From the IMG/VR virus record IMGVR_UViG_3300001242_000018, positions 62,001 through 126,000 of that record: a stretch of 64,000 nucleotides of DNA; one strand, written 5' to 3'. A program made the translations under genes and the position numbers. How positions within the stretch are numbered: the stretch's first letter is position 1; every line of letters starts with the position of its first letter. This document shows, piece by piece, positions 45,441-62,118 of the stretch. The notes beneath the pieces are model-generated. The model made no database searches. It worked only from the letters and a program-made list of their open reading frames with translations, and was not told where the DNA came from. This DNA comes from an uncultured virus (IMG/VR IMGVR_UViG_3300001242_000018) (Duplodnaviria > Heunggongvirae > Uroviricota > Caudoviricetes).

Positions 45441-45863
45441 TTACACCTCGTCACTTAGTCTAGCGGACATCTCTACTTCGGTTTCCGGATTAACATGCAT
45501 GTACTCGCAAAGATCTAAATATGCTTGTAATGCCTTTGCCCGGACGACGGTATCCGGGTGCTTGTACCCTATTATTTCAAATGCATGCATCAGATGACCG
45601 AATACGTGTACAGATAACATATCAAATGCAGGAGGATTAGCCTCTGCCATATCTATTATCCTACCAAAATAAGTACGTTTCATGAATGTCTTATCCGGTG
45701 CCGCATTTCTTAAAACGATAGAACGTATCCACCTGGTTAATGATTTAACCTCTACTGTAGCTCCTATATCCGACCCCCTTAGACTTAGTAAAAGAACTGT
45801 CTGCTCTTTTAATGTTAGAGCAAATAGCCAGTCTTGCATAACAGGGCCTGGTACCCATTTCAT
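45441..45863 (-). CDS. Hypothetical phage protein
   Basis: AAAGGAGGTG SD; His-rich 'HLMHAFEIIGYKHP...HVNPE'. Confidence 0.6.
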   Translation of the reverse strand: MKWVPGPVMQDWLFALTLKEQTVLLLSLRGSDIGATVEVKSLTRWIRSIVLRNAAPDKTFMKRTYFGRIIDMAEANPPAFDMLSVHVFGHLMHAFEIIGYKHPDTVVRAKALQAYLDLCEYMHVNPETEVEMSARLSDEV

Positions 45864-45929
45864 AGTATCACCTCCTTTATAAAATAAAGACTATAGTAAA
45901 ATACTACAGTCTTGGATAAAAGATTATTA

Positions 45930-46006
45930 TGGTCGGGATGGAGGGATTTGAACCCCCGATTTCCTGTTCCCAAAACAGGCGCCTTACCAAGCTAGGCCAC
46001 ATCCCG
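45930..46006 (-). tRNA. tRNA-Pro(TGG)
   Basis: Full cloverleaf CGGGATG...CATCCCG-A-CCA; anticodon arm CCTGT-TTTGGGA-ACAGG. Confidence 0.92.
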
Positions 46007-46010
46007 ACAA

Positions 46011-46147
46011 TGACCGGGGAGATAGGAAGACCCGGTCAAAGTGTCGAAGCACTAAGTTAGTACTGTTTTGACATACTTATCGATGCCGGGTACAGCCCGA
46101 AACCCAACTACTTCAAGGTGTAGTCAATCCTGCCTTATTAATAAGGC
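46011..46147 (-). ncRNA. Candidate structured RNA 'D' between tRNA-Ile2 and tRNA-Pro
   Basis: Run of hairpins: GCCTTA/TAAGGC, GACTAC/GTAGTT, CGGG/CCCG, TGACCGGG/CCCGGTCA. Confidence 0.35.
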
Positions 46148-46149
46148 TC

Positions 46150-46224
46150 TGGTGGGCCCTAAGAGATTCGAACTCCCAACCAACCGGTTATGAGCCGGAT
46201 GCTCTACCATTGAGCTAAAGGCCC
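46150..46224 (-). tRNA. tRNA-Ile2(CAT), possibly elongator Met
   Basis: GGGCCTT...AGGGCCC-A-CCA with CAT anticodon; the GGGCC acceptor is typical of lysidine-modified Ile2. Confidence 0.85.
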
Positions 46225-46598
46225 TTAAATAAGTTTCATATCAAATTCCATTGTTATAACAAATACTAATTTTCTTTTAATTGTCATCTTTAATTCCTTC
46301 CAACTGTAATAATAATTGTAAAAGTGCTTTCGTATATGAAATATTACATTCTATCGGGTTATTGATTCTTCTAAATGCTTTACCGATAGATTTTAAATTA
46401 CAAATCCTATCTAAACATCTTTAGGAACGAAATTTACATTTCCTATAGCCTCTTCGAGCATATCTTTTTCAATGCCAGACATAACAAATACATATACACC
46501 ATCTAATTCACTACTATTATTAGAACAATTATAATGACTTTTTGCGAATATATTATTCACTCCTTAAAGTTCATTAAATCATCACCTAAATTAATTTT

Positions 46599-46679
46599 TG
46601 GTCGGGATGGAGAGATTCGAACCCTAAATCACTGGTACGGGCTTAAACCGTATGTCTCTACCAATTGGGCTACACCCGG
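46599..46679 (-). pseudogene. Degenerate/chimeric tRNA-Leu(TAA) with a Pro-like 3' end
   Basis: D and anticodon arms nearly identical to tRNA-Leu 48676-48753, but the 3' end TCCATCCCGACCA equals tRNA-Pro; mismatches in acceptor and T stems. Confidence 0.6.
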
Positions 46680-46710
46680 AAGATGATCGGTTACAACCTA
46701 TTACTCATCT

Positions 46711-47004
46711 TTAGATCTCCATCCAGTTACTAAACTCAGAATCTTGCTCTAAACCTTTAGAAATAAGTAATTTTACAAGAGTGGGTATGTCTCTATCAAT
46801 CATAGATTCAAAAGAAGAATCCGCTAAACTTACTAAAGAAAGTTCATCTAATATGGGATTAAGTATATCCCACTCTTCTTTGGTATAACTATCAGTAAGA
46901 TAATGATAATTATTCCAACATTCTTTAGTATTGATCGTAACTACAATTAAATCTGGTTCATCTGGAAACGTACATACATGAAATATAAATTTATTTGTAT
47001 CTAT
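46711..47004 (-). CDS. Hypothetical acidic protein inside the tRNA array (probable ATA start)
   Basis: AAGGAGTG + 6 nt + ATA GAT ACA AAT; the ORF-track start lies inside a tRNA. Confidence 0.55.
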   Translation of the reverse strand: MDTNKFIFHVCTFPDEPDLIVVTINTKECWNNYHYLTDSYTKEEWDILNPILDELSLVSLADSSFESMIDRDIPTLVKLLISKGLEQDSEFSNWMEI

Positions 47005-47025
47005 AAATATCACTCCTTTAATGTT

Positions 47026-47101
47026 TGGTTGCGAGTGCCGGACTCGAACCGGCAACCTCCAGTTTATGAAACTGACGAGCTTCCAATTGCTCCAACCTGC
47101 G
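47026..47101 (-). tRNA. Initiator-like tRNA-Met(CAT), atypical
   Basis: CGCAGG...GCA-A-CCA with C1:A72 mismatch; anticodon arm TCAGT-TTCATAA-ACTGG. Confidence 0.75.
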
Positions 47102-47105
47102 ATAA

Positions 47106-47231
47106 TGCTGCAATTTAGTGGACTACGTGTACCTTAATCCGTGATAGATCCTTTACCCATATTAGCAGATATATTACATCAGCTTATGGAGTTATATCAC
47201 TGGTTAAAGTCGCGCCGTTTGCAGCTGCCAC
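47106..47231 (-). ncRNA. Structured RNA motif A, copy 1
   Basis: GTGGCAGCTGCAAACGGCGC-[long irregular hairpin]-GTACACGTAGTCCACTAAATTGCAGCA; ends shared with 48757-48870. Confidence 0.7.
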
Positions 47232-47250
47232 TACAGGGCGTGAAGCCCTC

Positions 47251-47327
47251 TGGTCTGGGTGGAGAGATTTGAACTCCCAGTTACCTGCTCCTAAAGTAGG
47301 CGCCTTACCAAACTAAGCTACATCCCG
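47251..47327 (-). tRNA. Pro-scaffold tRNA with TAG (Leu) anticodon, possibly a pseudogene
   Basis: 5' CGGGATGTAGCTTAGTTTGGTAAGGCGCC resembles tRNA-Pro; loop TTTAGGA; two acceptor mismatches and one anticodon-stem mismatch. Confidence 0.55.
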
Positions 47328-47391
47328 AGGAGGCCCAAGGGTCGCAACTCCTTGAGCACATGATAAAGTGGTTGGGATCAGCAGTTATCCC

Positions 47392-47476
47392 TGGCGGAGG
47401 GTACAGGAGTCGAACCCGCTAGGCTTTTACACCTCGACTGTTTTCAAGACAGCTTACCACCGTTGGCCTACCCTCC
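47392..47476 (-). tRNA. tRNA-Ser(TGA)
   Basis: GGAGGGT...ACCCTCC-G-CCA, long variable arm, TGA anticodon, short D arm. Confidence 0.85.
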
Positions 47477-47559
47477 GTAATGCAATGGCTTTTATTCGCT
47501 TAGTTAATTGTTCCGGTATGCTAAAGCCATTAAAATATCAACCGTCTACAATTTAATAC

Positions 47560-47603
47560 TGGCGGAGACAGAGGGAGAATCGACTTATAAATTGCGACTC
47601 TCC
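47560..47603 (-). pseudogene. Internally deleted tRNA-Ser-like remnant
   Basis: GGAGAG...TCTGTCTCC-G-CCA ends retained; D and anticodon arms absent. Confidence 0.4.
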
Positions 47604-47618
47604 ATGATTCCATAAATG

Positions 47619-47632
47619 GCGGAAGGTATAGG
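47619..47632. repeat. 14-bp direct repeat of the tRNA-Ser(GCT) 3' end (other copy 48081-48094)
   Basis: GCGGAAGGTATAGG on both sides of the HNH gene. Confidence 0.85.
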
Positions 47633-47635
47633 CCC

Positions 47636-48055
47636 TTATAATACATGTTTCCATATTAAACGATTCTTTATATCAGATATTACACTGTGATGTATTTCAA
47701 ATAATCTTCCTAATTCTCTAATACCATAGCCATTACTAAGTAAACATCTAATATATACAACCTGTTTTTCATTAAGTTTTGCATTAACATGATTAGAACC
47801 CTTTATACTAGGTCTATTTCTCATCTTTTCTCTAGTTGATTCGGGTAATTTCTTACCAAGCATATGTAATCTACTATGTTCTTTTCTTGTGGTCAATTCT
47901 AAATTACTAGGTTCATTATTTCCTTTACATTCATCTTTGTGATGAACAATTTCAGAACTAAGTAACTCTCTACCAAGTTTTGCTTCCATAACTAATCTAT
48001 GTTCGTTATTGGTGGTATTTTTGTTTATTCTAATCTTTTTATATTTATTAGAAAT
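47636..48055 (-). CDS. HNH homing endonuclease (HNH_3) with NUMOD3-like motif and C-terminal HTH
   Basis: 'EHRLVME..LGR.L.S.EIVHHKD....NN...NLEL.....H...H', 'GKKLPESTREKM', 'G..H.NAKL....V..IR.....G.....L...F.I....I..I.....WKH'; more AT-rich than its flanks. Confidence 0.85.
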   Translation of the reverse strand: MSNKYKKIRINKNTTNNEHRLVMEAKLGRELLSSEIVHHKDECKGNNEPSNLELTTRKEHSRLHMLGKKLPESTREKMRNRPSIKGSNHVNAKLNEKQVVYIRCLLSNGYGIRELGRLFEIHHSVISDIKNRLIWKHVL

Positions 48056-48080
48056 AATAATCACCACCAATTAGTTTAGA

Positions 48081-48166
48081 GCGGAAGGTATAGGATTTGA
48101 ACCTATGCAGGTGTTACCCTGGCCTTTGATTAGCAATCAAGCACATTACCGCTCTGTCAACCTTCC
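48081..48166 (-). tRNA. tRNA-Ser(GCT), CCA not fully encoded
   Basis: GGAAGGT...ACCTTCC-G-C, GCT anticodon, long variable arm. Confidence 0.85.
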
Positions 48167-48167
48167 A

Positions 48168-48249
48168 GTCATTCAGTGTGCCAGTCTTAAGTGGGTTCCA
48201 TTGGGCACACTGAATATTGTATGTGAGCTCTAGAGATATGCCAACTCTA
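48168..48249 (-). ncRNA. Structured RNA motif B, copy 1
   Basis: TAGAG-TTGGCATAT-CTCTA GAGCTCACATACAAT ATTCAGTGTGCC-loop-AAGACT-GGCACACTGAAT GAC; homologous to 48950-49031. Confidence 0.7.
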
Positions 48250-48256
48250 ATACTTA

Positions 48257-48342
48257 TGGTGGAAGAGGTAGGATTTGAACCTACGAAGTTGTTACACGGC
48301 AGATTTACAGTCTGCTCCCATTAACCACTCGGGCACTCTTCC
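48257..48342 (-). tRNA. tRNA-Tyr(GTA)
   Basis: GGAAGAG...CTCTTCC-A-CCA; GCAGA-CTGTAAA-TCTGC. Confidence 0.92.
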
Positions 48343-48349
48343 ATGATAA

Positions 48350-48422
48350 CGGTTTCAGGGGAGGGATTCGAACCCACGACCTTCAGGGTATGAACCTGAC
48401 AAGCTACCTCTACTCAGCGTCG
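48350..48422 (-). pseudogene. Degenerate tRNA-Met(CAT)
   Basis: Anticodon arm TCAGG-TTCATAC-CCTGA and a TTCGAAT T loop remain; 5' acceptor strand does not pair; ends in ACCG. Confidence 0.6.
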
Positions 48423-48425
48423 TTA

Positions 48426-48503
48426 TGGAAGGGGAAGTAGGATTCGAACCTACGAATGTACGGATCAAAACCGTATGCCTTAGACCAACTTAGCTACACC
48501 CCT
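48426..48503 (-). tRNA. tRNA-Gln(TTG)
   Basis: AGGGG...CCCCT-T-CCA; TACGG-TTTTGAT-CCGTA. Confidence 0.88.
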
Positions 48504-48654
48504 ACATATTTATAAAGTGTATTACAATATCTAAGAAACTTAAGTCTTTAAATTCCCAAAATAATAATTCATTACATTCTATGCATGGAATTAATTCATA
48601 AAATTCTATATCGCAATTTCCATACAAACAAGTTGAACATGATTTCTTAGACAT
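48502..48654 (-). CDS. Small Cys-rich peptide (about 50 aa)
   Basis: AAGGTG SD, then MSKKSCSTCLYGNCDIEFYELIPCIECNELLFWEFK... Confidence 0.35.
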   Translation of the reverse strand: MSKKSCSTCLYGNCDIEFYELIPCIECNELLFWEFKDLSFLDIVIHFINM

Positions 48655-48675
48655 TATATCATCACCTTATATTAT

Positions 48676-48753
48676 TGGTATCGGTGGAGGGACTTGAACC
48701 CATCACTGGTACGGGCTTAAACCGTATGTCTCTGCCAATTGGACTACACCGAC
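48676..48753 (-). tRNA. tRNA-Leu(TAA) with a short variable arm
   Basis: GTCGGTG...CACCGAT-A-CCA; TACGG-TTTAAGC-CCGTA; variable region only about 5 nt. Confidence 0.8.
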
Positions 48754-48756
48754 ATG

Positions 48757-48870
48757 TGCTGCAATTTAGTGGACTACGTGTACTTCTTGAGGATAGATTC
48801 TCTAGTCCACTTTAATAAATAAACTAGAGAATCTATCCGAACAAGAAGCAGCGCCGCTTGCAGCTGCCAC
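48757..48870 (-). ncRNA. Structured RNA motif A, copy 2
   Basis: GTGGCAGCTGCAAGCGGCGC-[near-perfect long hairpin]-GTACACGTAGTCCACTAAATTGCAGCA. Confidence 0.7.
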
Positions 48871-48872
48871 AT

Positions 48873-48947
48873 TGGCAGGGAAAGCTGGATTCGAACCAGC
48901 AACATACGGATTAACAGTCCGCCGTTCTACCATTGAACTATATCCCT
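48873..48947 (-). tRNA. tRNA-Asn(GTT)
   Basis: AGGGA...TCCCT-G-CCA; GCGGA-CTGTTAA-TCCGT. Confidence 0.9.
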
Positions 48948-48949
48948 GT

Positions 48950-49031
48950 GTCATCCAGTGTGCCAGTCTTGGATTGCACCCTCCGGCACACTGGACATTG
49001 TTTGTGAGCACTGGACATCTGCCAACATCCA
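48950..49031 (-). ncRNA. Structured RNA motif B, copy 2
   Basis: TGGATGT-TGGCAG-ATGTCCA GTGCTCACAAACAAT GTCCAGTGTGCC-loop-AAGACT-GGCACACTGGAT GAC. Confidence 0.7.
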
Positions 49032-49042
49032 TTATTAAAAGC

Positions 49043-49204
49043 TAATAGGTAGATGAGAGATTGCAGTCTCTCATGATTTAGTAATCCCCTGCAGTAGAAT
49101 TACACAGTGTTGACTTCTGGAATTGAGATATACCACACCTTATACGCCATGTATAATATATCCCAGTGTATACCTTAGCCTTCGGTATAGCCCACTACCT
49201 ATTA
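49043..49204 (-). ncRNA. Candidate multibranch structured RNA 'C' (162 nt) at the head of the tRNA array
   Basis: Perfect 10-bp closing stem TAATAGGTAG/CTACCTATTA enclosing four arms. Confidence 0.6.
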
Positions 49205-49220
49205 ACATCTTCGACATTCC

Positions 49221-49466
49221 TTAACTATAACGAGCTATTGAAGCATTGGCCCAGAATACAGCCTCTTCAATCTTCTTTATAGCTTCGCGTTTATCCATGC
49301 TGTCAGGACATAATTCATTGATAAGTTCTGCGAAAGCCTTACCCATACCGCGAATCTCCTCATACTTCTGAGGCTGCTCTTCCGTAGGAGGATGATAGCT
49401 AAATCTTTTCTCGATTTCAACGTCAGGGATGCTCTTTAAGTCCTGAACTTTATTTGTATCATTCAT
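49221..49466 (-). CDS. Acb2/Tad1-like helical-hairpin protein (candidate anti-defence nucleotide sponge)
   Basis: 'FSYHPP...Q..KYE.IR......A..I.ELCPDS..K..A..K.EEAVFWANASIAR'. Confidence 0.55.
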   Translation of the reverse strand: MNDTNKVQDLKSIPDVEIEKRFSYHPPTEEQPQKYEEIRGMGKAFAELINELCPDSMDKREAIKKIEEAVFWANASIARYS

Positions 49467-49471
49467 ACTAA

Positions 49472-49777
49472 TCACTTCCTGCGTCGTTTATTATACCATT
49501 TTACAGGATTGTTAGATGTAAACTTTTCATAGCTAGGTTTCTCAAGAGGCATAGGTGCGAGTCTAGCATGCATCATAAGACCGATAGGATTGATATGCTC
49601 TTTTACTGTTAAAATACCGCCATCTATAATGTAATCTACGCTATTTTTAAGCTCTTTACCGTTTTCATCTACTATGCACAACCCGCTATAACCTGAGCAT
49701 TGGTTATTGCTAAAAGAATTCCTTACTCGGGTCTTAAATTCGATTATATCTTCTTTAAGAAGATTGGCAAAACTCAT
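49472..49777 (-). CDS. Hypothetical protein
   Basis: Likely start MSFANL after GGTG. Confidence 0.4.
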   Translation of the reverse strand: MSFANLLKEDIIEFKTRVRNSFSNNQCSGYSGLCIVDENGKELKNSVDYIIDGGILTVKEHINPIGLMMHARLAPMPLEKPSYEKFTSNNPVKWYNKRRRK

Positions 49778-49790
49778 CGTATCACCAACT

Positions 49791-50132
49791 TTACTCTGGC
49801 GGCGGAGGATCTTCTGGAGGTTCAAGGTCTGACTCTATCGGTTGAGGTAAGTCACGACATTCTTCCAATAGGTGAGAGTATATACCTTTGAGTCCCTTAC
49901 TAACAGTTCTTAGTTCCTCGCCAGCAGCCTGAAGTTTCTTTAATGCTTTATTGTGTAATAACATTGCTTGATGATCAAGTACATATATGTGGAATGTATT
50001 AATCTCTCGATAACCCCTACCTTCAGGGTCTAACATTCCGGGATACTTTACTAACGATTCGTACATTCCGAACTTGAGAATTTCAATCTCAACCATCATG
50101 TCTGTACGATTATGACGTGTCATAGCTTTCAT
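49791..50132 (-). CDS. Hypothetical protein
   Basis: GAGGTGG SD; Pro-rich tail. Confidence 0.5.
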   Translation of the reverse strand: MKAMTRHNRTDMMVEIEILKFGMYESLVKYPGMLDPEGRGYREINTFHIYVLDHQAMLLHNKALKKLQAAGEELRTVSKGLKGIYSHLLEECRDLPQPIESDLEPPEDPPPPE

Positions 50133-50169
50133 GGTACCACCTCATGAAGAGATGATACCATGTTACATG

Positions 50170-50427
50170 CTACATGTCAATACCCATTTCACTTATATAC
50201 TTCAAGTTCATCACGGTAGTAAGGATAGGGTAATAAAGACAAGTACCGCAATTTGCTATTATAGCATTAGTATATTGAGGTACTATTCTACCTTTACTAT
50301 CTTTTAATATCTTCTTGGGATTTAACTTCCAACTCTTACAACACCTATCCAAACCCATTACACGTACTTCATACTCGTTCGAGTCTAGCACGGTGTCCTG
50401 ATTAGAGCATGTATTATTTTCACACAT
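50170..50427 (-). CDS. Cys-rich hypothetical protein
   Basis: Overlaps the nrdD stop codon. Confidence 0.35.
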   Translation of the reverse strand: MCENNTCSNQDTVLDSNEYEVRVMGLDRCCKSWKLNPKKILKDSKGRIVPQYTNAIIANCGTCLYYPILTTVMNLKYISEMGIDM

Positions 50428-53400
50428 GAGGTATGCGATCTGTCTCTTCCGCTACTTTTGCGTCATTGAAGCGCTCAAGTGTTGAAATGTACCCTGTTAT
50501 TCTGCGAATCCTATCTATCTTATCTCTTTCTCCACATACAGGACAGGGTTCTCCATGTGGTATTATATTATTATGAGTACCACAGGACTTGCACAAATCT
50601 ACTGGATAATTAACAGCAGCGTAACCCATATCGCAAGCGGCCATGTGTAATACTATATTCTCAATAGCATCGATATTGTGTTGCGGCATACTTTCGAATT
50701 CAATGTAACTCATGTGGCCACCATTGCAATATTTATGGAATGGCCCCTCTATTGCTATTTTATCATAATAGCTAATAGGATAATCAACCGGTACATGATA
50801 ACTGTTTGTATAGTATTTCTTATCAGTCGCTCCGGGAATTGTCCCAAACTCTTCACGGTCAAGTTTGGTAAACCTACCCGATAAACCTTCTGCCGGAGTA
50901 GCAATAACAGAGAAGTTAAGGTCGTATTTCTCGCATGCTTCATCGGCTATCTTGCGAATATAAGATATAATTTTATGACCCAGGGCCAGTGCATTTGTAC
51001 TTTCAGCATGATACTTACCTACAAGTACTTTCAAACATTCAGCTAAACCAATAAAGCCTAGTGTAAGTGTACCATGCCTAGCAGCTAGATAGATACTATC
51101 TTCTGGATTTAATTTGTCAGCATCCCTGTATAAGTCTTGACCAATTAGGAAAGGAAAGTCTTTAGCCTTTAATGTACATATATATTCAAAACGATGCATG
51201 AGCTGCCGTACTATAAGGTTTAATACTTCATTATGCAATTCAAAGAAGTAACTTAACCTGGCATCTGTATCATCAGGATGCTTTAACATAGCCTTTATAG
51301 CTAGTCTGGGTAAATTCTCTGTGGTAAACCCTACGTTTCCTCTCTCAATTGTAGTAGATTCTCCATGACGGTCGGCTACTACACGGGTACGACAACCCAT
51401 ATAAGAGATATCTCCGTCTTTATTAAAACTACTGTCGCAGAATACCCAACTAGGATTGAGCCGTTTAGCTGAAACTTCCTGTGCCAAACGAAATAGGTGA
51501 TAGTACGGATCCGACTTATGCATATTAACGCCGCTCTTAATCTTAAAGCAAACGTTAGGAAATATCGGTTGCTCGCCATTCCCTAAACCGGCTTTAAAAG
51601 CTCTTAAGAACCATTCACAGATCTTAGCAGCATCGGGACTTTGCACATTACCTATGTTGATAGAAGAGAAAGGGATCTGCCCCCCTCCCCTGCTGTTATG
51701 AACGAAGATACACTCGGCTGTCAAGAATGTTTCATTATCTTCTACAGATAAATCGTAGACGTATTCATCACCACTGTTAGACTCAAGACATTGATTAATA
51801 GAAACGGGGAATACGTTAGTAGCGGCCCCGAGTCGTTTGTCTGTCATAGCATATATATCTATTTCATGGGGCTTAATCTTCTTATACTGGATTAGCTTAT
51901 TGTTTTCTTTGATTAGAGATTTCAGAAATTCGTAGTCGTAATGCTTTTGTTCATACATAACCTTACAACCAAACTCTAATCCTAATCTATTCTCCGCAAT
52001 TCCACTAATAGATATCTCATAATTGAGTGATGTACCGTAATTCGAACTGGTAGTTCTCTCGGCTATATGAGGAAGCTCACGCAACCTTAAAAGCATGAGA
52101 TTTAACTCATTGCGTAATCTCTTACTTACAGTGGTAGCTATAATATAGTTCTCTTTAATACTACCGTCACATTTGAAGTACCCATTAAGGAATGATATAA
52201 GTACTTCATCTTCTGCAAACAAGATCTCTACAGGAATATGTTTAGTATAAGCGTCATAGCCGAACTTGTCTTTAAACATATCGGCCCATACCTTACCTAC
52301 ATTAAACCGTATATCCTTCGGTTTACCGATAGGTGTAGGATAACGATTATAAGTAATATTCTCTCCATAACATTGCTGCATAAGAGAGATTAACTCATCT
52401 TCTTTATTAGTAGAACATACTGTAAAGCAGAGTTGAGATCCTCCTACTACACTACCTTCAGCCACATAATAACCAGCTATCTTGGCAAACTCCATAGTTA
52501 CTACAATATGATCATCTAAGTAGTTTTGAACTTTTCGTGAATGATAATGATCTAAACCGATATCGCCTCTAACCGGTGGGAGATCGATACCTCTTGGAGA
52601 TAAAACATGATTCAATGTTTCTGGGAACCTGCCAGTTACATTACCGTAGTCATCCATACACATAGTAACATGATTATCGGTAGTAGTATTTTTCCTACCT
52701 TCATTGTCAATAAGAGTAATAAGTCTACGGTTATTATCTTTCTTACTGACACTTGTAATATACTTCATCTCTGCCTTACCAGTCACATGGTTAAGACTGA
52801 TAGTTTGATACCGATTGGGTTCAAAGATTTCAGCCAATTTGCCAATAGCTATCTGTAAGAGTTCTTCTTCGACAGTATCGTATATCCAAATCTCCTGACT
52901 ATACGGCAAGCAATGCATCGTGTTAAGGTTATAGATTAAAGCCTCCATAGCTTGGAATCCTTTATGATCGAGTATTCTTTCTACCTGAGTATCAATGGCT
53001 TCCGGATCTAATTCGTTAAAGTTCTTACCTGTAAGTTCTACGCCATACCGTAAATCACGACGTATCTTCTCCCGTTGTTGCTCCATTATTCCGGTCGCGA
53101 CGAACTGATTATCGAAATCCGGATAACTTTGACCGCCGTACATCTCATTCTGATTTGCCTGGATAATTATGCTCGCATGCATAGCAGCGGTCTTTAAGCT
53201 ACGGGCTGGACGGATAAAGCCATGGCCGGTATTAAATCCATGAGCAGCTAGTTTCTCATAAGGTATTTGACAGCAATTGAGTCCTTTGCCATACCAAGCT
53301 TTATCATGGATATGGATGTCTCCATTATCATGTGCCTCACTAAACTCTCGAGGTATTACTCTCTTACCGTAAAAATACCCAGATGCGGCTTCGGATATCT

Positions 53401-53785
53401 GAAGTACCTTACCAGCCATAGTGGGCCCTACATTAGCATTATCCTTTGTAGCTTCTCGGTCGATATCCCGGATTACATCCATTAGATCATCCTTACCTTC
53501 GCGTAGGGCAGCTCGTCGTTCTCTATATACGGCATATCTTCTAGATACTTTCCAGTATCCTGCGACGCAAAGAGTCTGCTCAACAACGTCCTGGATGGTT
53601 TCTATATCAATGATCTTTTCATCCGGCAATTGTTCAATTACCTTACTTATTAATAACGTAAGACATTGATCTTCATAAGGTATCTCACTGGCAATAAAAG
53701 CTTTCTGTATTGCCATACGAATTTTCTCAGGATACCATTCTGCTAGTGTTTCACCATCACGTTTACGTACATAAGGTGTTGACAC
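50420..53785 (-). CDS. nrdD: Anaerobic (class III) ribonucleotide reductase with ATP cone and intein
   Basis: ATP cone 'VRKRDG....W...KI..AI.KAF', 'AHDNGDIHIHD', 'NCCQI', 'SYMGCRT', 'ATPAEGLSGRF', 'YYTNS', CxxC..CxxC, 'RRITGY'. Confidence 0.95.
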   Translation of the reverse strand: MSTPYVRKRDGETLAEWYPEKIRMAIQKAFIASEIPYEDQCLTLLISKVIEQLPDEKIIDIETIQDVVEQTLCVAGYWKVSRRYAVYRERRAALREGKDDLMDVIRDIDREATKDNANVGPTMAGKVLQISEAASGYFYGKRVIPREFSEAHDNGDIHIHDKAWYGKGLNCCQIPYEKLAAHGFNTGHGFIRPARSLKTAAMHASIIIQANQNEMYGGQSYPDFDNQFVATGIMEQQREKIRRDLRYGVELTGKNFNELDPEAIDTQVERILDHKGFQAMEALIYNLNTMHCLPYSQEIWIYDTVEEELLQIAIGKLAEIFEPNRYQTISLNHVTGKAEMKYITSVSKKDNNRRLITLIDNEGRKNTTTDNHVTMCMDDYGNVTGRFPETLNHVLSPRGIDLPPVRGDIGLDHYHSRKVQNYLDDHIVVTMEFAKIAGYYVAEGSVVGGSQLCFTVCSTNKEDELISLMQQCYGENITYNRYPTPIGKPKDIRFNVGKVWADMFKDKFGYDAYTKHIPVEILFAEDEVLISFLNGYFKCDGSIKENYIIATTVSKRLRNELNLMLLRLRELPHIAERTTSSNYGTSLNYEISISGIAENRLGLEFGCKVMYEQKHYDYEFLKSLIKENNKLIQYKKIKPHEIDIYAMTDKRLGAATNVFPVSINQCLESNSGDEYVYDLSVEDNETFLTAECIFVHNSRGGGQIPFSSINIGNVQSPDAAKICEWFLRAFKAGLGNGEQPIFPNVCFKIKSGVNMHKSDPYYHLFRLAQEVSAKRLNPSWVFCDSSFNKDGDISYMGCRTRVVADRHGESTTIERGNVGFTTENLPRLAIKAMLKHPDDTDARLSYFFELHNEVLNLIVRQLMHRFEYICTLKAKDFPFLIGQDLYRDADKLNPEDSIYLAARHGTLTLGFIGLAECLKVLVGKYHAESTNALALGHKIISYIRKIADEACEKYDLNFSVIATPAEGLSGRFTKLDREEFGTIPGATDKKYYTNSYHVPVDYPISYYDKIAIEGPFHKYCNGGHMSYIEFESMPQHNIDAIENIVLHMAACDMGYAAVNYPVDLCKSCGTHNNIIPHGEPCPVCGERDKIDRIRRITGYISTLERFNDAKVAEETDRIPHV
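51695..52912 (-). mobile_element. Intein (406 aa) with LAGLIDADG homing endonuclease in NrdD
   Basis: LNTMH|CLPYSQ...TTTDNH...IAGYYVAEGS...FLNGYFKCDGS...YVYDLSV...IFVHN|SRGGGQ. Confidence 0.93.
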
Positions 53786-53786
53786 A

Positions 53787-54404
53787 TTAATCGCTCTCCT
53801 TCTCATGTTGCATACTGACAGTATCGCGAAGGATTTGCAGTTCTCGCATTGTTATCTTTAACTGCTCCCTGGAGTTAAACAGTTCATTCTTTAGATACTT
53901 AATCATCTGAACCATCTCTGCAATGGTATCGAATTTAGAGAATGAGTACAAATCATCTGTATCTTTAAGTTTGAAGTTAACTACCGGGAACTTGCCCCTA
54001 CCCTTACACTCTGCAATAGCCTTATCAAGCCATCCTTTTTCTATTGTTATAGATAACTTTCCTCCACCTGTAATTATAGGTTTTCTTTCTTTAGTCTCAT
54101 TAAATATCACATCATCCAGAAAATCTCCTGGACGATGTGTTTGATTTCCGGAACCGGGGTTAATCTTAGCCTCCATCTCTACGGCGCTAGGCATAGCATT
54201 TACAGTTAATGTACCTTGAGTTTCGGCATTACGCCAGGATGGATTATTCCTGGCGATTTGTGAGTTATTAAAGTGTCCGGCTTTCTTACGACGTTGGTTA
54301 CGTACCTTATCTTCAGGTAATCTTAAAAGATCTTTATTCATGCACCTGTAGCACGAATTCTTAGCCCCGCTTAAACAACGTCCATAGAATTCGCATTCAG
54401 ACAT
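53787..54404 (-). CDS. PD-(D/E)XK nuclease, Hjc-type Holliday junction resolvase-like
   Basis: 'NPGSGN....PGD......ETK......SITI.K.WLDK...E'. Confidence 0.6.
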   Translation of the reverse strand: MSECEFYGRCLSGAKNSCYRCMNKDLLRLPEDKVRNQRRKKAGHFNNSQIARNNPSWRNAETQGTLTVNAMPSAVEMEAKINPGSGNQTHRPGDFLDDVIFNETKERKPIITGGGKLSITIEKGWLDKAIAECKGRGKFPVVNFKLKDTDDLYSFSKFDTIAEMVQMIKYLKNELFNSREQLKITMRELQILRDTVSMQHEKESD

Positions 54405-61884: not shown

Positions 61885-62118
61885 TCACAGTATTTTCTCA
61901 CATCTATCCTCTGTTATGCATAATAGAGGCCCCTCTGAATCGTTACACAAATATAAAGAACGGGATAAACTACGTGTATTCTCCCATTTTCCACCAAGAT
62001 AACGGGCCGCACTCAACTCTTCCCCGACGCGAAAGCGAACAACTACTCTACCATTAGGAGGTGTCTTGAATTTACGTTGCCATGTACAATTGTTAAATAC
62101 CATTGCTAAGTTTATCAC
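61885..62118 (-). CDS. Hypothetical protein
   Basis: 77-aa ORF. Confidence 0.35.
   Translation of the reverse strand: MINLAMVFNNCTWQRKFKTPPNGRVVVRFRVGEELSAARYLGGKWENTRSLSRSLYLCNDSEGPLLCITEDRCEKIL

Follow-up and report, generated by a model that had tools for sequence, protein, structure and literature searches.

A duplicated two-hairpin element with an embedded promoter match, placed before two tRNA genes of a large Bacillus phage 0305phi8-36 relative

Introduction

Small structured elements have been described in several phage settings that bear on the present locus. In the PeSL cassettes of the T4-type phages RB49 and phi1, the cited part of PMC2839356 describes promoters whose stem-loops overlap the -35 or the -10 box. 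The T4 tRNA region yields two small RNAs of unknown role, RNAC and RNAD (PMC3014915, cited portion). Theta ribozymes, which are minimal HDV-like ribozymes lying beside phage tRNAs, come after a tRNA 3' end and depend on a nested double pseudoknot, as the portion of PMC10879173 cited here has it, and the hatchet ribozyme is built of four stems (P1-P4), P2 and P3 being separated by conserved bulges (PMC6154101, cited section).

In the present study, we analysed a window of 64,000 nucleotides of an uncultured virus (IMG/VR record IMGVR_UViG_3300001242_000018, positions 62,001 to 126,000), in which an element that we call motif B occurs twice within a tRNA gene cluster. Like a PeSL cassette, motif B is a repeated intergenic element in which a predicted sigma-70-type promoter is joined to an overlapping stem-loop, and, again as in the cited part of PMC2839356, it lies in a genome region that bears marks of duplication. 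Unlike PeSL, for which that part counts about 50 copies, motif B has 2; a tRNA lies downstream of it, with neither Shine-Dalgarno sequence nor start codon; no T tract follows either hairpin and no terminator was called at either copy; and a second, longer hairpin with a 20-21-nt loop is added, while the promoter of copy 2 is off consensus. A stem-loop is found at the predicted promoter boxes (-35/-10 matches of 10/12 and 9/12). By this comparison motif B would work most like a PeSL cassette, yet it fails two of the defining features and we do not file it as PeSL.

The other likenesses are more partial. As with RNAC and RNAD, we are dealing with a non-tRNA segment inside a phage tRNA cluster, but transcription was shown for the T4 RNAs (PMC3014915, cited portion) whereas motif B is predicted from sequence, and the likeness is one of position. 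Motif B shares with theta ribozymes the character of a small structured RNA at most 5 nt from the end of a phage tRNA; unlike those in the cited portion, however, it adjoins tRNA 5' ends and consists of two plain hairpins. With the twister-sister and TS-like (lantern) ribozymes, as far as the cited parts of PMC6154101 and PMC11620745 describe them, it shares a GCUCA in the linker and a constant AAG followed by a possible short helix; unlike them, it has no two-stem internal loop in both copies, lacks the key G and carries an inactivating sixth letter.

Results

The window comes from a virus record of 137 kb; a second record of this phage runs to 220 kb. Its capsid protein shares 47% identity with the one from Bacillus phage 0305phi8-36 and 45% with the one from Moorella phage MTATph1, and the closest capsid relatives found reach at most 52%; the phage is a large myophage related to 0305phi8-36. 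Its host is probably an anaerobic member of Bacillota, in view of this capsid kinship and of the NrdD that the phage carries. DNA carrying the phage came from groundwater and sediment sequencing runs of two studies; no RNA run was among those listed, which says nothing for or against expression. The minus strand carries eleven tRNA genes between 45930 and 48947, and the cluster is laid out around motif B as follows.

48168-48249, minus strand: motif B copy 1, 82 bases, between tRNA-Tyr and tRNA-Ser(GCT)
48081-48166, minus strand: tRNA-Ser(GCT), downstream of copy 1; no encoded CCA
48257-48342, minus strand: tRNA-Tyr(GTA); its CCA end and hairpin 1 of copy 1 are 7 nt apart
48950-49031, minus strand: motif B copy 2, 82 bases, before tRNA-Asn
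48873-48947, minus strand: tRNA-Asn(GTT), downstream of copy 2; GCCA end
45887-45913, minus strand: terminator-like site at the end of the tRNA cluster, the sole minus-strand one within 45500-50500

Both copies reported in an earlier note on this DNA were recovered at these positions, on the minus strand, and each ends in GAC as had been claimed, 1 nt before tRNA-Ser(GCT) and 2 nt before tRNA-Asn. The 137-kb record holds these 2 copies and no more, none was found in an overlapping 57-kb record, and the count stands at 2 in 190 kb of phage DNA. The letters of motif B are identical in the 220-kb record, and contigs of two sequencing runs, possibly the source of the record, carry both copies with zero differences. 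A contig from the second study spans 48923-49319 with copy 2 unchanged; no piece of copy 1 appears among the matches listed for it.

Folded on the minus strand, the two copies take the same form.

48231-48249, minus strand: copy 1 hairpin 1, a bulged stem of 4 outer and 2 inner pairs
48170-48216, minus strand: copy 1 hairpin 2, 13 bp with a 21-nt loop (variable segment 48189-48203, constant AAGACT 48183-48188)
49012-49031, minus strand: copy 2 hairpin 1, 7-8 bp
48952-48997, minus strand: copy 2 hairpin 2, 13 bp with a 20-nt loop (variable segment 48971-48984, constant AAGACT 48965-48970)

The 12-bp stem that had been proposed for hairpin 2 is present, lengthened to 13 bp by one U.G pair, as is its compensatory U-A to C-G change, which is accompanied by an A-U to G.U change. 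The stems of hairpin 1 differ between the copies, as the note had it, but they do correspond: aligned with a single indel, they have 4 outer pairs in common, one of which is altered on both sides (A-U to G-C). An alternative pairing of the TGGCA loop with TGCC does exist in both copies; it amounts, however, to only 4 bp in competition with the 13-bp stem. Besides the two hairpins, the helices common to both copies reach 4-5 bp.

On the minus strand both copies fold better than their shuffled versions (z -2.5 and -2.95; hairpin 2 alone, -5.6 and -5.5), and on the plus strand they do not (z -1.2 and -0.8). In a structure of 20 pairs, 39 of 39 aligned cells hold standard pairs, with two pairs doubly changed and one turned into G.U, and all 5 substitutions at paired positions retain pairing. 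When 5 substitutions were scattered at random over the 38 paired positions, all pairs were kept in 2% of simulations and two double changes arose in about 0.15%, a naive null (about 0.0015) that flatters the fold, the structure having been picked after both copies were viewed. The shuffle test of a covariation tool (130/500) is uninformative with two sequences. G.U pairs number 2 in copy 1 and 4 in copy 2 and favour a minus-strand RNA; together with stem substitutions that are all compatible with pairing, they support a constrained RNA fold.

Divergence between the copies is unevenly spread. The variable loop has changed at 10 of 15 columns, as against 11 of 69 elsewhere and 3 of 30 among the remaining unpaired ones (Fisher p 0.0002). 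AAGACT, the inner 9 bp of both arms of hairpin 2, which show no covariation, and most of the linker are invariant. The hypervariability of the loop rests on one sequence pair, since no homolog was found. The reverse complement of loop 1 agrees with loop 2 at 8 of 14 aligned positions (p 0.04, post hoc); an inversion of the loop was set aside for want of fitting flanking repeats. We also noted an 11-nt stretch, including the constant AAGACT, that is shared by the loop of copy 2 (48964-48974) and the 5' arm of the cluster terminator hairpin (45907-45917), possibly by chance.

The invariant unpaired letters also read as sigma-A-type promoter boxes, and further matches lie upstream.

48216-48244, minus strand: copy 1 promoter match, TTGGCA-17-TACAAT, 10/12
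48997-49025, minus strand: copy 2 promoter match, TTGGCA-17-AACAAT, 9/12, the first base (T) of the -10 box being altered
50152-50180, minus strand: upstream sigma-A-type match, 11/12, TG before the -10 box; candidate source of read-through
49743-49770, minus strand: second upstream match, 11/12; candidate source of read-through

In both copies the loop of hairpin 1 forms the -35 box, the linker ends in the -10 box, and hairpin 2 begins where the -10 box ends. Shuffled sequences reach the score of copy 1 in 1.0% of cases and that of copy 2 in 4.2%. Elsewhere in the phage, clear sigma-A-type matches of 12/12 and 11/12 occur, and intergenic matches of 10/12 are not enriched genome-wide (9 against 8.3 expected). 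Within 95 nt of a tRNA, matches of at least 10/12 precede 7 of 110 tRNAs, with 2.0 expected, when the phage and its capsid relatives are taken together; among these, two relatives carry a perfect -35 box in or at the hairpin loop before tRNA-Tyr. Sigma-54 and sporulation-sigma promoters were considered by eye against consensus sequences, and neither fits both copies. Bacillus phage 0305phi8-36 has 21-bp promoter candidates of its own (PMC2147016, in the part cited).

The predicted +1 falls downstream of hairpin 1 and of those outer pairs of hairpin 2 that covary, so a transcript from the embedded promoter cannot account for the covariation. The covarying segments would be present in a read-through transcript starting from the 11/12 matches at 50180 or 49770, and on the minus strand no terminator-like site was called from these upstream promoters to 45913.

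Motif B belongs to no family that we could find. At the gathering score Rfam reported only tRNAs, and the copies themselves gave only weak microRNA- and snoRNA-type hairpin matches. Four exact-pattern scans of a viral collection returned 20 stretches (none with a tRNA), 7, 0 and 3, with no true match among them. A metagenome pattern returned 7 stretches, of which 2 are the same phage and 5 have no linker or tRNA; a pattern run on species genomes returned 24, none with hairpin 2, and the best non-self model score there was 15.6 bits, whereas the copies score 103-105. Diverged relatives escape exact patterns, very close genomes may be missing from the sets searched, and a lack of matches does not make motif B unique. 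A covariance model built from the two sequences gave one match in 4 virus records (E 0.38), one in 50 records made up of 49 of the 80 capsid loci retained from 584 matches plus the Moorella phage (E 0.18), a best E of 0.34 in 19 tRNA-cluster loci with filters off, and 0 of 3 and 0 of 151 in bacterial genomes. By blastn, 3 and 0 phage records and 1 plasmid record were hit, all at E of at least 2. Neighbouring genes were used as queries as well: none of 58 Acb2/Tad1-like loci has a tRNA cluster, and the resolvase gene gave no close relative.

We found no description of motif B in the literature searched, a body of text outside most subscription papers. The element is real, undescribed as far as we searched, and confined to one phage among the sequences in which homologs were sought; one phage and two copies are too few to define a family yet. 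A side product of the scans is an inverted repeat at thirteen viral loci that has the 9-bp arms of hairpin 2, a fixed 12-nt spacer and a position upstream of a -10-like box, with no tRNA nearby; the identity of the arms follows from the design of the search.

Leader hairpins as such are common in this group of phages, which makes motif B one among many structured spacers and no lone oddity. Among 110 tRNAs, taken from this phage together with 15 cluster loci from its capsid relatives, 14 are preceded by a hairpin that has 8 bp or more and stops no further than 6 nt from the tRNA, with 4.1 expected; once leaders that overlap another tRNA are set aside, the count is 10 of 98, with 3.7 expected. 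In this phage 5 of 11 tRNAs have such a hairpin. Two hairpins with a 9-18-nt linker precede 7 of the 110 (0.5 expected), a pattern that was defined from motif B, such that 4 remain once its 2 copies and 1 tRNA-arm case are taken away. The clusters of relatives hold ROOL RNAs, in 3 of 15 cluster loci, as well as a tmRNA-like match.

Several individual structured spacers were noted as well. The leader of tRNA-Leu(TAG) (47328-47391, minus strand) has the two-hairpin layout of motif B in different letters, and a multibranch spacer precedes tRNA-Pro (46007-46149, minus strand). Two tRNA-like pieces on the minus strand, 49036-49205 and 47555-47615, have a short motif and a T-arm-like hairpin in common and received no call from ARAGORN or Rfam; the first is a multibranch RNA with a long closing stem just before copy 2, and the second ends in CCA. 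In related large phages, tRNA clusters at five loci from four records contain the ROOL RNAs (3 loci) and several unannotated spacer RNAs common to three of those records (G010, G011 and G012), which are candidates for a covariation screen. One of the five loci (L215) has a look-alike two-hairpin leader that does not score on the covariance model and has no relative in 32 other records except for one 17-nt match.

Discussion

The reading that we prefer, held with a confidence evenly poised between acceptance and doubt, is that of a structured tRNA-leader cassette that has been duplicated, carries a promoter within it and is private to this phage; its role is probably regulatory or processing-related. 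The cluster would be transcribed as one long precursor from the upstream promoters, in which both hairpins would fold locally, keep the spacer from pairing with the tRNAs and leave 3-5 nt of leader single-stranded where RNase P acts. Hairpin 1 of copy 1, 7 nt past the CCA of tRNA-Tyr and behind an AU-rich stretch, may resemble a site for a host endonuclease; RNase Y cleaves AU-rich single strands near structure (PMC3997798, cited part). The same DNA would serve as an internal promoter that would boost the downstream tRNAs and give them a shorter 5' hairpin; this promoter is probably active in copy 1 and weakened in copy 2. The variable loop would then be the unconstrained part of the hairpin and not a guide, and the cassette would have been copied once inside a cluster in which other duplications are found. 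Insulation alone does not account for the invariance of AAGACT, of the inner 9 bp and of most of the linker beside a saturated loop. The minimum-energy fold of copy 2 joined to tRNA-Asn, in which the hairpin-1 region pairs into the acceptor stem and with the tRNA 3' end, also goes against simple insulation.

The main rival, unlikely as we judge it, is a small stable RNA of the RNAC/RNAD kind cut from the tRNA precursor, with RNase P making its 3' end, hairpin 2 protecting that end and the invariant unpaired letters binding a protein or an RNA. It ranks first among the rivals because it best explains the invariant unpaired letters outside the promoter boxes, which stand as whole blocks beside the saturated loop. 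The covariation, moreover, extends over the whole 82 nt, including the parts upstream of the predicted +1; the clusters of relatives hold other structured RNAs (ROOL); and the two T4 RNAs are a precedent, as the cited portion of PMC3014915 has it. Against these points, no search gave a homolog and Rfam no match, and the promoter match would have to be a coincidence at about the 1% level.

Rather improbable, in our estimate, is a nearly neutral duplication in which the arms of an inverted repeat were evened out by template switching on DNA, mimicking compensatory change. Template switching can correct palindromes. The four arms of copy 2 all carry one 4-nt core, with a 10-nt stretch repeated in arms 2 and 3, and the cluster has other duplications (an element that we call motif A, tRNA-Leu(TAA) and the 3' end of tRNA-Ser). 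A DNA palindrome, however, would not favour the G.U pairs that have been kept or gained, 2 in copy 1 and 4 in copy 2, and the strong contrast in divergence between loop and scaffold also counts against this reading.

The fold of copy 2 with tRNA-Asn, which places the hairpin-1 region on the 3' end, prompted a further idea, namely a new kind of tRNA-leader RNA with an activity of its own, whose invariant hairpin-1 UGGC(A) loop would dock the GCCA 3' end of the following tRNA and so gate or chaperone its maturation. The T-box bulge and RNase P both dock the tRNA 3' end. A GCCA end is one that both downstream tRNAs have or had, and it occurs in 3 of the 11 tRNAs of the cluster, the duplicated Ser end counted; copy 2 is predicted to form a duplex of -10.1 kcal/mol with tRNA-Asn, and copy 1 one of -5.9 with the duplicated tRNA-Ser end, while with tRNA-Tyr the two reach -2.3 and -4.6. 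The idea is post hoc, draws on two sequences and uses letters that are also read as the -35 box, and we regard it as quite unlikely.

Self-cleavage by a ribozyme of new or permuted type, which would excise tRNAs from the precursor, is very unlikely, although tRNA-adjacent theta ribozymes are known in phages (PMC10879173, cited portion) and the linker GCUCA matches 5 of 6 letters of the cleaved loop strand as numbered in the cited part of PMC11620745. In motif B a possible 4-bp helix would place this run opposite the constant AAG. The sixth letter is a C, which according to the cited part of PMC11620745 nearly abolishes TS-like activity; the opposite strand has no matching G, and the second flanking stem is absent. 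Forcing a twister-sister-like helix makes the fold 17-18 kcal/mol worse, no pseudoknot helix above 5 bp is common to both copies, and no ribozyme family in Rfam matched at E<=10, including the hatchet and twister-sister models that had been put forward. Taken by family, a twister-sister or TS-like fold fails for want of a 5 + 6 nt internal loop between two stems, the second stem being missing and the loop letters different; the hatchet, for having two stems where P1-P4 are required. A theta or HDV-like fold finds no nested double pseudoknot in the common helices, and its cleavage site should lie at most 5 nt from a tRNA 3' end, while copy 1 begins 7 nt after tRNA-Tyr; no tRNA was called upstream of copy 2. 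T-box-like specifier codons and the hammerhead and pistol cores, compared by eye with consensus sequences, do not fit both copies.

Equally slight is the chance that we are looking at a DNA site, an inverted repeat over the predicted start that a phage regulator of the internal promoter would bind. The invariant inner 9 bp of both arms, which do not covary, do flank the predicted +1, and the phage encodes HTH proteins and two sigma-like factors; the half-sites, however, stand 20-21 bp apart with a 1-bp difference in length, no other copy exists in 190 kb of phage DNA, and the G.U pairs point to RNA. The earlier suggestion of a scaffold with a programmable guide or antisense loop, prompted by a constant scaffold around a variable 14-15-nt segment, is the most remote of all and found no support: in 190 kb of DNA from this phage, which is all of it but about 30 kb, the best complementary matches of both loops lay at or below the shuffled range (longest Watson-Crick runs 11 and 10 nt, shuffled means 10.9 and 10.1), the linker matched no better than its shuffled copies, and none of 36 window proteins scanned had a Pfam match to a guided nuclease or recombinase.

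If the cassette reading is true, motif B offers a modest example of a large phage building its tRNA cluster from duplicated promoter-plus-hairpin modules. More broadly, hairpins and unannotated structured spacers are over-represented in the tRNA leaders of 0305phi8-36-like phages and would repay a systematic screen. Should motif B instead be a released small RNA or a binder of tRNA 3' ends, it would bear on the role of non-tRNA RNAs in phage tRNA clusters.

Motif A deserves a separate remark. It is a second duplicated element, at 47106-47231 and 48757-48870 on the minus strand, before tRNA-Met and tRNA-Leu(TAA). Its ends are conserved, with 27 nt identical at the 3' end, and its long middle hairpins are unrelated; it likely contains a pseudoknot. 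It has no Rfam match and no homolog in 19 loci, 34 records or phages, and it is a better ribozyme candidate than motif B.

Several neighbouring features were also noted. An HNH endonuclease ORF (47636-48070, within 47620-48094, minus strand) is flanked by two copies of the last 13 nt of tRNA-Ser(GCT), of which the downstream duplicate, past the HNH gene, ends in CCA, an arrangement as after insertion at the 3' end of this tRNA. Between tRNA-Gln and tRNA-Tyr lies a partial tRNA with a CAT anticodon and without a proper acceptor stem (48347-48420, minus strand; Rfam 36 bits, model positions 10-63). Directly upstream of the cluster, 49221-49475 on the minus strand encodes an Acb2/Tad1-type hairpin-domain protein (Pfam PF24729), likely an anti-defence signal sponge. 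Farther off, a conjugation-type ATPase and a Replic_Relax gene occur in this tailed-phage genome (40280-43631, plus strand), and the NrdD gene (50420-53806, minus strand) contains an intein that bears a LAGLIDADG domain.
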